In this document: positions 60,855-62,946 of the stretch, one piece after another | How positions within the stretch are numbered: position 1 is the first letter of the stretch | Layout of the letters: the number at the start of each line of letters is the position of its first letter | Source of the DNA: Candidatus Omnitrophota bacterium | Lineage (GTDB): Bacteria > Omnitrophota > Gorgyraeia > Zapsychrales > Fredricksoniimonadaceae | Reading direction: 5' to 3' | Length of the DNA: 64,000 nucleotides | NCBI GenBank assembly: GCA_044225175.1 | Contig: JBGAJA010000004.1 | Span: forward strand, 81,631-145,630 | The notes under the pieces: generated by a model | The model's input: the letters and a program-made list of their open reading frames with translations, nothing else | What the model was told of the DNA's origin: nothing | Database searches by the model: none | Position numbers and translations under genes: made by a program

Positions 60855-61172
60855 TTATAAGGAGATTTTATCAGCCCAGATAGAGACGACAGGTAAACGT
60901 AAAAATTCACCTTTAAGAACGGCTATTAAGCAGCAAAATGATAATGCCATCAGAATAAACATAAGCGGAGCTAGAATAAATGGAAATACAATACTTAAAA
61001 TCCAAACAGCAACTTGTGAAATAAAAAGAACAAGCCCCTGTTTACCGTGGGCTAAGACAAATGGATTGTTTTTCTTTAAGATTAAAGGAATGATGCAAAG
61101 AATGGACAAGTAAGCGAGCAGAGCGTAAATCTTACCATCAAGTATGACTTCCCTTGAAAAACCCTGCTGCAT
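60855..61172 (-). CDS. Small membrane protein (105 aa)
   Basis: Three hydrophobic helices. Coupled to parA (its stop overlaps the parA start). Confidence 0.35.
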   Translation of the reverse strand: MQQGFSREVILDGKIYALLAYLSILCIIPLILKKNNPFVLAHGKQGLVLFISQVAVWILSIVFPFILAPLMFILMALSFCCLIAVLKGEFLRLPVVSIWADKISL

Positions 61173-62353
61173 TAAGCTTTGACCTCAACGAGAGAATTGA
61201 TATCGCCAAACGAATTGCGTTCAATATTTTGATTATCAGGATCTTTTTGCCATTTCCCATCTACGATGAATTGGTATTTATAGACTCCAGGTTTCAAATT
61301 AACGCTCAGTCTCCACATTCCATGACTATTGGTCATTCGACATTTTTCATCTAAAGACCAGTCATTGAAAGATCCCGTAACATAGACATTTTGTGCTTCT
61401 GGTGCCTTCAAAGAGAAATTAGCGAGCCCCATAAATTCTGTTGATTGTTTCTCAACTAGCTCTTGCATACGTTCTGAAGGTTCATATGTTTTAATTGTCT
61501 CTTGGGCAACAAATATTTCTTCTGTAGCTTTAAGAGGTTCTTTGGCCAAAGGCTCTTTAACCAAACGTTCTTCTTTAACCACATTGAATTCAGCAGGGCG
61601 ATCTAACATGAGGATTTCCATAGCCAAACTTAAATAATCTTTAGAGCCACGGCAATATTTATCATATTTGATAACTGCTTCCCCCATGACGGCAGATTCT
61701 TTTAACTTAACATTGACATGGACAATTGTGTCATAAATTAATTTACCAAACTTCTCTTTCATTTTAGATAGCATGGTAAATGAATGACGCAAACGAGAAT
61801 CAAACATAGTAACTAAAATTCTCTCTTGAACTGGATGATTAAGTCTGTCGCGGATCAAATTAATGATATCTGTTAAATGATCTACCCCCTGCATCGAAAA
61901 ACGGCTGGTTTCAACAGGGATAATGACTTGATCCGAAGCTCGGATGGAATTGACCGTTAAGAAACCTAAGCTTGGCGGACAATCAATTAAAATATAATCA
62001 TATAAATCTTTAATTTCTGAAATTGTCTCGACCAATTTTAATTCACGACCAATTTCATCAGTCAATTCCTGTTCTAACGTTCCAACAAGAATGTTCGATG
62101 GAACAATGTCAAAATTGTTGTCGACACGTTTAATAATTTCTTTGATTTTAAGTTTTCGAGGGGTAAGTTTAGAAATAATGTTGTAGAGACTGTAGCTGTC
62201 GTCGATATTTAAGCCTAATGTCGCATGAGCCTGAGGATCCAAGTCAATCAAAAGGGTTTTCTTTCCGTTAAATGCTAATGTGGCAGCTAAATTAATGGAG
62301 CTCGTTGTTTTCCCACATCCACCTTTTTGATTGGCAATCGAAATAATTTTCAT
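61172..62353 (-). CDS. ParA/MinD-family ATPase fused to a C-terminal CBM48 / AMPK-beta glycogen-binding domain
   Basis: Deviant Walker A (KGGCGKTT) at the N-terminus. The C-terminal ~80 aa (VYVTGSFNDW...WRL...KYQFIVDGKWQKDPDN) match the glycogen-binding module. Confidence 0.7.
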   Translation of the reverse strand: MKIISIANQKGGCGKTTSSINLAATLAFNGKKTLLIDLDPQAHATLGLNIDDSYSLYNIISKLTPRKLKIKEIIKRVDNNFDIVPSNILVGTLEQELTDEIGRELKLVETISEIKDLYDYILIDCPPSLGFLTVNSIRASDQVIIPVETSRFSMQGVDHLTDIINLIRDRLNHPVQERILVTMFDSRLRHSFTMLSKMKEKFGKLIYDTIVHVNVKLKESAVMGEAVIKYDKYCRGSKDYLSLAMEILMLDRPAEFNVVKEERLVKEPLAKEPLKATEEIFVAQETIKTYEPSERMQELVEKQSTEFMGLANFSLKAPEAQNVYVTGSFNDWSLDEKCRMTNSHGMWRLSVNLKPGVYKYQFIVDGKWQKDPDNQNIERNSFGDINSLVEVKA

Positions 62354-62373
62354 AAATTTTTTGATCCTTTTGG

Positions 62374-62946
62374 CTAGTTAGAAAATGCTAAATCATCAAT
62401 AAGAACTGTGCCTTTTTTGAAATCCATGTTCCATGCTTCAAGAACAAAAGACACATCTGTTACAGTGCTCCAATCCGTCAAATTCAATTTATCCAGAGGG
62501 ATACTGACTTTCTGCCATCCTGTCTGAACATTTTGAATGTAGTATGTGGCCTTTTCATTGCGTTGATTCCCTAGAATCATCTTGATAACTCCCGGCGCTT
62601 CATTTAATCCACGTATCGATAAATTTAAATGACTATATTTTGAAATATCCTTATTCGGGATCGTAATTGTAAATGTTTTTGTCGACGGAAATGGGTCATT
62701 AAGATCATAAACAATGCGTATTGGATTATTATTTAAAGAATAAAAAACTTCATTCTTCAATGATACTCGTCGAGTTAAAAAAGCTGTGAACCCATAGACC
62801 GTTGAAACAAGAATCACCGCTGTAATCACAATATTGATAATCAGCCATGACTTATTTAAAGTCTTCTTCTTTTTTTCTTGAACAACATTTTCTCTCTTGC
62901 CTAAATAAACCTTGGCAAGATGATCATAAATTTCATCGCGCGTCAT
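62374..62946 (-). CDS. Membrane-anchored hypothetical protein (190 aa), possible ParA partner
   Basis: N-terminal TM anchor and a C-terminal beta-rich domain. Lies immediately upstream of parA in the same orientation. Confidence 0.4.
   Translation of the reverse strand: MTRDEIYDHLAKVYLGKRENVVQEKKKKTLNKSWLIINIVITAVILVSTVYGFTAFLTRRVSLKNEVFYSLNNNPIRIVYDLNDPFPSTKTFTITIPNKDISKYSHLNLSIRGLNEAPGVIKMILGNQRNEKATYYIQNVQTGWQKVSIPLDKLNLTDWSTVTDVSFVLEAWNMDFKKGTVLIDDLAFSN

Follow-up and report, generated by a model that had tools for sequence, protein, structure and literature searches.

Can a ParA-type ATPase carry its own grip on a polysaccharide store? The question is raised by a 64,000-nucleotide (nt) stretch of the genome of a Candidatus Omnitrophota bacterium (contig JBGAJA010000004.1, positions 81,631 to 145,630; hereafter the window), in which a first-pass annotation made from the sequence alone had described a ParA-like ATPase ending in a glycogen-binding module, with small coupled genes on either side, and had proposed that it partitions glycogen granules. 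We refer to this fusion as ParA-CBM (CBM, carbohydrate-binding module). The present analysis establishes the identity of its domains, the conservation of its key residues and of its operon, the breadth of its family, and the absence of ParB and parS. We read ParA-CBM, tentatively and at a little under an even chance, as an orphan nucleoid-type ParA whose own tail would bind glycogen and so tether and distribute the particles on the nucleoid, both cargo and mechanism being predictions.

The 190-amino-acid (aa), 393-aa, and 105-aa open reading frames (ORFs) of the first-pass annotation are present as described, all on the minus strand, and their coupling holds: p190 and ParA-CBM are separated by 20 nt, and the stop codon of the fusion overlaps the start of p105. 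A fourth coupled gene, p169, follows p105 after a gap of 12 nt. Neither p169 nor the terminator-promoter boundary upstream of the operon (see below) had been part of the earlier description. The operon reads as follows:

62946..62374, minus strand: p190, 190 aa, the first gene of the operon
62353..61172, minus strand: ParA-CBM fusion, 393 aa, stop codon at 61172-61174
61172..60855, minus strand: p105, 105 aa, its start overlapping the ParA-CBM stop within a shared TAATG
60842..60333, minus strand: p169, 169 aa, the fourth coupled gene

Within the fusion, three parts can be told apart:

61589..62353, minus strand: ParA (Soj-like) ATPase domain, aa 1-255, with the deviant Walker A motif KGGCGKT (K10, K15), D37/D39, Walker B D124, and R187
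61424..61588, minus strand: variable linker, aa 256-310 (~55 aa), ending in the conserved YEPSxRMQELVxKE (alignment A1)
61175..61423, minus strand: CBM48/AMPK-beta-type module, aa 311-393, with W332, Q361, W368, F382, and N386

The N-terminal half is a Soj-like ATPase. Pfam AAA_31 covers residues 1-174 (E=3.5e-55, 187 bits) and CbiA matches with 60 bits, both above their gathering cut-offs. The closest solved relatives are Soj-type ParAs (8RAY, E=2e-48; 6IUB; 1WCV), including those of H. pylori and T. thermophilus, and identity to Soj-type ParAs is about 50%. Residue conservation was scored over the query and 121 representatives sharing no more than 50% mutual identity, 122 sequences in all, with a Bacillaceae Soj as the numbering reference. 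All catalytic residues of the ATP-binding site, whose conservation the first-pass annotation had proposed as a check, are kept in 122/122 representatives, namely the signature Lys K10 and Walker A Lys K15 of KGGCGKT (residues 10-16), the Walker A' Asp residues D37 and D39, and the Walker B Asp D124. R187 aligns with Soj R189, which we take, from B. subtilis Soj, to be the non-specific DNA-binding arginine, and an Arg occupies this position in 107/122 representatives.

Two further residues form a signature of the subfamily: a Cys in Walker A (residue 13, 115/122) and a His in DPQxH (residue 43, 119/122). The Soj reference has Val and Asn at these sites, and ordinary ParAs of the same hit list read KGGVGKT or KGGTAKT and DPQGN. 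The Cys and His could possibly act as a redox- or metal-sensitive switch. ParA-CBM scores under all NCBIfam equivalog cut-offs, including those for ParA_partition (NF041546, 106 bits against a cut-off of 180), RepA, MinD (minD_bact, 55 bits against 213), and BcsQ. It has no C-terminal amphipathic membrane-targeting helix, its C-terminus being the CBM, and no min genes were found near it in the window.

That the protein ends in a CBM48 module, a claim for which profile confirmation had been suggested, is borne out by matches far over the Pfam thresholds. AMPK1_CBM covers residues 319-392 (E=8.2e-18, 64.8 bits against a gathering cut-off of 26.8), and CBM_48 matches with 29.7 bits against 22.4. 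By phmmer against PDB sequences, the module matches the CBM chains of AMPK beta1/beta2 (E ~1.5e-10). The last 72 residues of ParA-CBM align with AMPK beta1 89-156, which places W332, Q361, W368, F382, and N386 at the positions of W100, K126, W133, L146, and N150, respectively. The critical carbohydrate contacts of AMPK beta are W100, K126, W133, and N150 (PMC4032982); both Trp residues and the Asn are thus kept here. Across the representatives, the W100 equivalent is Trp in 122/122 and the W133 equivalent in 119/122, a Lys or Arg stands at the K126 position in 119/122, and an Asn or Asp at the N150 position in 113/122. Modules with 36-42% identity to that of ParA-CBM occur as tandem arrays in GH13 alpha-amylase/pullulanase proteins (P0144, P0171), which ties this CBM subtype to alpha-glucans. 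Between the two halves, the linker ranges from ~0 to 359 aa across the family (median, 50) and holds no Pfam domain; longer members add domain-free linker alone, which fits a flexible-tether design.

Near-pure tandem AMPK1_CBM/CBM48 proteins were also seen among the database matches (P0122, P0193, P0212, P0231, and P0250). P0122 has up to 17 CBM copies in 1812 aa, and the others have 4-6 copies in 399-698 aa. They have no recognisable catalytic domain and may be glucan-granule scaffolds or surface binders.

How widespread is the fusion? An exhaustive search covered 1.84 billion representatives, and the best 150 clusters (50% identity) were inspected, 121 of which combine an N-terminal Walker A with one CBM, located at the C-terminus or close to it, in proteins of 337-698 aa. 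When clustered at 90% identity, relatives that are 70-83% identical to ParA-CBM form more than 120 clusters, the named ones being Candidatus Omnitrophica/Omnitrophota. Among GTDB species genomes, the full-length fusion is found in 36 species. Most of these are Omnitrophota, and fusions with 32-40% identity come from bins that carry the labels Thermodesulfobacteriota/Deltaproteobacteria, Planctomycetota/Phycisphaerae, Eisenbacteria, and Anaerolineales. Extra domains that might name a cargo were considered for the members of 550-700 aa and ruled out, as only ParA, linker, and CBM are present. Databases give the fusion generic names, either "AAA family ATPase" or "chromosome partitioning protein", and no paper on this fusion was found in the literature on ParA, glycogen, CBM48, and positioning. 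Judged by its sequences, ParA-CBM48 makes up a large ParA subfamily, so far undescribed, that has dedicated partners and a putative carbohydrate-binding cargo module as part of the protein; its function is a prediction. One of the 36 full-length fusions, with 32% identity, lies on a 2977-bp contig (L041, JAKPSJ010000023.1) of a bin labelled Methanobacteriota archaeon, which is possibly misbinned.

The proposal of the first-pass annotation was exposed to two objections, a C-terminus that fails to match CBM profiles and a conventional chromosome ParA with adjacent parB and parS; both were checked, and neither refutes the idea. For the second, a ParB hidden Markov model (HMM) was built from nine Spo0J genes adjoining ordinary ParAs. 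This HMM matches 38/44 ordinary ParA loci versus 0/42 fusion loci, and it finds no ParB at E<=10 in a six-frame translation of the whole 64-kb window. No second ParA was found in the window, and parS (TGTTNCACGTGAAACA, canonical consensus only) has no match in the 64 kb with up to 2 mismatches. With the ParB HMM and parS tests negative, a conventional chromosomal ParA was rejected. A looser version, an ordinary chromosome-segregation ParA with its ParB and parS elsewhere and the CBM as an accessory, has in its favour the Soj-like identity of the ATPase half, the retained DNA-binding Arg, and a gidA gene 0.8 kb downstream of one fusion (L086), an arrangement reminiscent of origin-proximal par loci. 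It is extremely improbable in the face of the ParB counts, the shortfall on ParA_partition, the Cys/His signature, and the subfamily's own non-ParB partners.

What these partners might be was approached through gene-context comparisons drawn from the loci of relatives (L numbers), since a search with the exact protein gave just one contig of 1.8 kb. For the first gene of the operon, the AlphaFold2 (AF2) model gives three parts:

62940-62905, minus strand: N-terminal helix of p190, aa 3-14, DEIYDHLAKVYL, conserved
62853-62755, minus strand: transmembrane helix of p190, aa 32-64, preceded by a basic disordered stretch
62721-62380, minus strand: CBM-like beta-jelly-roll of p190, aa 76-189

The model has a mean pLDDT of 68 (75-88 in the sandwich), and its helix 32-64 agrees with the membrane anchor that the first-pass annotation had assigned to the upstream partner. 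H9, L10, and A11 are kept in 90-100% of sequences. Foldseek matches the jelly-roll to CBM11 (1v0a, E=7e-7, probability 1.0), CBM4, CBM30, and CBM28, with TM scores of only 0.43-0.5, and Pfam matches to CIA30 and CBM30 are under their cut-offs. By the positive-inside rule, p190 is probably bitopic, with a cytoplasmic N-terminus and a periplasmic jelly-roll. In 24/24 close loci (L002-L025), the gene directly upstream of the fusion is a p190 homolog. Beside six distant fusions (L027, L029, L031, L034, L086, and L087), the upstream protein has the p190 layout with an N-terminal "(A/V/I)(D/R)(I/V/T)YF" motif; neither phmmer nor jackhmmer found relatives of p190, p105, or p169 beside distant fusions, and the relation to p190 comes through profile-profile comparison only (hhalign, 96% probability, E=3e-9). 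The product of p105, which adjoins the fusion in 19 close loci, is a small polytopic membrane protein that matches Pfam DUF4870 below the cut-off (E=0.005), and its homologs carry weak precomputed MamF_MmsF matches. The suggestion that the neighbours of ParA-CBM are partners thus gains from their conservation, but p190 does not suit the part of a simple granule adaptor, as it is a membrane protein with a CBM-like domain predicted to be periplasmic.

Such partners suit a different account, in which the CBM is an AMPK-like glycogen sensor modulating a ParA that positions or regulates a p190-p105 membrane or envelope assembly; the assembly could be a glucan-synthesising or -exporting complex, or a division or envelope landmark. 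This account draws on the linkage of p190 in all close loci, with remote homologs in six distant ones, on the bitopic layout of p190 with its CBM11/CBM4-like jelly-roll, and on the membrane protein p105. It also draws on the AMPK CBM, to which the C-terminal module is closer than to any other solved structure, and on the score of the ATPase half on Pfam CBP_BcsQ (36.9 bits), BcsQ being the ParA/MinD-type ATPase of cellulose synthase. We nevertheless hold it unlikely. Genes for a synthase, an exporter, or division do not adjoin the fusions consistently, many distant fusions have no p190-like gene and instead a soluble partner of the LGRGL type described below, the nucleoid-binding Arg is kept, and the C-terminus is taken up by the CBM, which leaves no membrane-targeting helix.

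The fourth gene encodes a protein of a different build:

within 60333..60842, minus strand: N-terminal helix of p169, aa 3-14, LKKISDVIKEVFWIK, with D9, E13-W16, and K18 invariant (alignment A5)
within 60333..60842, minus strand: spacer of p169, aa 15-90, lysine/proline-rich (K/P-rich), disordered, and variable in length
within 60333..60842, minus strand: beta-barrel of p169, aa 91-169, AF2 pLDDT above 90

Present in 20 close loci, p169 has the N-terminal helix consensus LSDVLKEVFWIK and, like p190, follows a conserved N-terminal helix with basic residues. Its barrel is of the U32-C-terminal/EF-Tu domain II type, matching 4HE5 (TM 0.88) and EF-Tu/IF2 domain II by Foldseek; as a generic translation-protein barrel with no ligand clue, it was dropped as a functional lead. 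We consider p169 the most adaptor-like protein of the operon and a candidate soluble partner of ParA-CBM.

Distant fusions have a second putative partner family. The gene directly downstream of the fusion in L032, L033, L035, L036, and L089, and with a weaker match in L030, L090, and L091, encodes a protein other than ParB that starts with "LGRGL(S/A)(D/E)VS.xFLSG" and continues into a degenerate MinD-like (MinD/ParA) P-loop domain. Across this uncharacterised family, the ParB-like N-terminal peptide can also be written LGRGLxxxSHxFLSG. The members assigned to it, all directly downstream of distant ParA-CBM genes, are:

L030:3018-4451, LGRGL protein
L032:3339-4277, LGRGL protein
L033:3770-4693, LGRGL protein
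L035:11089-11949, LGRGL protein
L036:6024-6875, LGRGL protein
L089:2057-3010, LGRGL protein

The LGRGL start closely resembles the ParA-activating "LG(R/K)GL.AL" N-terminal peptide present in 38/38 ParBs examined. The p169 N-terminus, ISDVIKEVFWI, appears to resemble the LGRGL-type motif, a similarity that we offer as a lead. As a general rule, ParA/MinD ATPases engage their partner's N-terminal region (PMC11407121), and a partner peptide of the LGRGL type would match this rule.

Taken with these partners, how would the system work? In our favoured reading of ParA-CBM as a nucleoid tether for glycogen, the ATP-bound Soj-like dimer would bind chromosomal DNA non-specifically, while the CBM48 on its flexible linker would bind cytoplasmic alpha-glucan (glycogen) particles. 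Glycogen would thereby be tethered to the nucleoid, and cycles of ATP hydrolysis would spread the particles along it, so that they would be kept from coalescing and be passed to both daughter cells. As is the case for other ParA systems, the N-terminal helix-plus-basic peptide of a co-encoded partner would set off hydrolysis and release; the soluble p169 and/or the cytoplasmic N-terminus of p190 are candidates for this role. We infer all four activities, DNA binding, glycogen binding, stimulation by a partner, and positioning, for the ParA-CBM system.

Several points weigh against this reading. In canonical ParA ratchets the stimulator sits on the cargo, whereas in ParA-CBM the cargo-binding domain is permanently attached. 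A model of free granules would leave unexplained the linkage of p190, its predicted periplasmic CBM-like domain, and the membrane protein p105. The cells of many Omnitrophota are ultra-small, and positioning may be of less importance to them. No glycogen (glg) genes were found in the 64-kb window, and there is no consistent linkage of the fusions to glg genes, which lie near them in two loci only (glgB 8.5 kb away in L005 and glgC 3.6 kb away in L086). These two glg neighbours count in favour of the reading, as does the glycogen synthesis that Omnitrophota metagenome-assembled genomes generally encode (PMC8542988). Against it, the window subfamily has Gln (Q361) at the K126 position of the module, an exception within the family, and the AMPK1_CBM fold also serves in non-glycan contexts, as in a type IX secretion system (T9SS) plug protein (NCBIfam NF052315, E=4.6e-10; PDB 6H3J).

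The T9SS plug protein, the Gln in place of K126, and the inconsistent glg linkage would all suit a module that has taken on a new role as a general Ig-like binding domain, with a protein or some non-glucan polymer as its target, which would make the cargo something other than glycogen. This is distinctly improbable, since the aromatic platform and the Asn are kept family-wide, the modules most closely related to it belong to alpha-amylases and pullulanases, and a plant beta subunit that keeps just the two Trp residues still binds starch (PMC4032982).

The surroundings of the operon bear on a further candidate cargo. At its edges we find the following:

63108..63141, minus strand: intrinsic terminator of the upstream Alginate_exp-type porin gene, a 15-bp stem (8 G-C pairs) and then a T-run
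63068..63096, minus strand: sigma-70-like promoter candidate, TCGACA-17-AAAAAT, 9/12 matches, in an AT-rich spacer 5' of p190
59250..60311, minus strand: three small genes 3' of p169 (63, 145, and 159 aa), with no Pfam match, kept in closer relatives only

The porin-gene terminator is the upstream limit of the ParA-CBM operon. Promoter-like sites around the operon are no commoner than in shuffles, and the candidate at 63068..63096 is a consensus match alone. As a strong upstream terminator is followed by an AT-rich spacer with a promoter-like site, the cluster is probably its own transcription unit. No terminator was found between p169 and the three small genes, which may therefore share its transcript. 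The 63-aa ORF among them (60120-60311, minus strand; MKIDSTGQNIIEYILLVVAVILV...) is Flp/Tad-type prepilin-like, with a hydrophobic stretch after G/xxxxEY; no Pfam profile matches it, and it is kept beside the operon in L002-L007.

Beyond these, ppx, ppk1, and a ROK kinase gene lie 2.4-7 kb downstream on the same strand (window 53430-57960, minus strand). Relatives have pstSCAB-phoU and Porin_5/Alginate_exp porins upstream of the fusion (L002, L003, and L005), the 42%-identical fusion of L086 has PhoU_div/PHO4 nearby together with glgC, and the L090 fusion has an H+-PPase nearby. These phosphate genes would suit a system that organises polyphosphate (polyP) granules or belongs to the phosphate-starvation response, with the K/P-rich p169 acting like the histone-H1-like AlgP that spaces polyP granules. 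AlgP and PhaF tether polyP and polyhydroxybutyrate (PHB) granules, respectively, by lysine-rich histone-like tails (PMC13052382). We rank this explanation as very unlikely because only the window, L005, and L006, the closest relatives, show linkage to ppx/ppk, and because the strong terminator cuts the porin gene and the rest of the upstream genes off from the operon; there is also no hint of polyP binding in CBM48, and the upstream synteny could be inherited gene order.

Other genes of the window were noted in passing. A 65-aa ORF with a cysteine cluster (CC..C.C.CCC; 59027-59224, minus strand) lies directly upstream of a SlyD-like FKBP isomerase gene (58470-58946, minus strand) whose product has a His/Cys-rich tail, HGHAHGADGCGHHH; the two may be a metal-handling pair. 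Two giant ORFs are on the minus strand as well, one of 3589 aa (36587-47356) with dynein/MoxR-type AAA_5 modules (~aa 2605-2729) and a C-terminal WD40 propeller, the other of 2594 aa (28309-36093) with several WD40 propellers. Housekeeping blocks at 47526-52121 (minus strand), 1922-4143 (plus strand), and 6514-10233 (plus strand) include a riboflavin operon with nusB, gshA-gshB, and a full-length B12-dependent methionine synthase.

How does ParA-CBM compare with known positioning systems? With McdA/McdB it shares an orphan ParA-type ATPase unlinked to ParB, a presumed nucleoid matrix, and small, poorly conserved partners encoded beside the ATPase, among them p169 with its charged disordered region. 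In McdAB, however, the cargo-binding module is on the partner, whereas in ParA-CBM it is on the ATPase, and the predicted cargo is a polysaccharide instead of a protein shell. Similarity to McdA is low (6NON, E=1.6e-12, over the N-terminal 164 residues only), and ParA-CBM adds an obligate membrane partner. With Soj/ParA of ParABS it has in common the deviant Walker A, the catalytic Asp residues, and the R189-type Arg; it differs in KGGCGKT/DPQxH in place of KGGVGKT/DPQGN, in a ~140-aa C-terminal extension ending in CBM48, and in the lack of adjacent parB/parS.

PhaM, PhaF, PhaH, and AlgP follow the same proposed logic, one polypeptide with a storage polymer at one end and the nucleoid, bound non-specifically, at the other, blocking coalescence (PMC13052382), and the lysine/proline-rich tract of p169 recalls their histone-like tails. 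These tethers have no ATPase and no ParA homology, in contrast to the ATP-switchable DNA-binding part and putative glycogen polymer of ParA-CBM. A 2025 review of organelle positioning treats the energy dependence of the PHB and polyP tethers as unknown and asks whether granule spacing uses energy (PMC13052382). Compared with the AMPK beta CBM, which belongs to a kinase scaffold and has K126, the module of ParA-CBM belongs to a bacterial ParA fusion and, in the window subfamily, has Gln. BcsQ and MinD share the P-loop family with ParA-CBM, which is likewise associated with membrane proteins (p190 and p105); they differ in that no cellulose synthase or min genes lie near ParA-CBM.

The cargo lists of recent reviews comprise chromosomes, plasmids, carboxysomes, chemoreceptor arrays, flagella, and PHB and polyP granules (PMC11407121, PMC13052382), and glycogen is unmentioned in both the 2024 ParA/MinD cargo review (PMC11407121) and the 2025 organelle-positioning review (PMC13052382). 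It is quite possible, though on balance we remain doubtful, that ParA-CBM48 represents a widespread, unrecognised ATP-driven positioning or partitioning of glycogen granules on the nucleoid, regulated by N-terminal peptides of dedicated partners, with a membrane partner that may couple it to the envelope. If true, this would give a polysaccharide store its first positioning machinery, and the ParA family its first member whose ATPase has the cargo-binding module built in. The ParA-CBM48 subfamily is a concrete, readily testable candidate for glycogen positioning and would offer a natural case of ParA cargo specificity set by an appended domain, with a bearing on how new ParA cargos are recruited in evolution and on the engineering of synthetic positioning systems.

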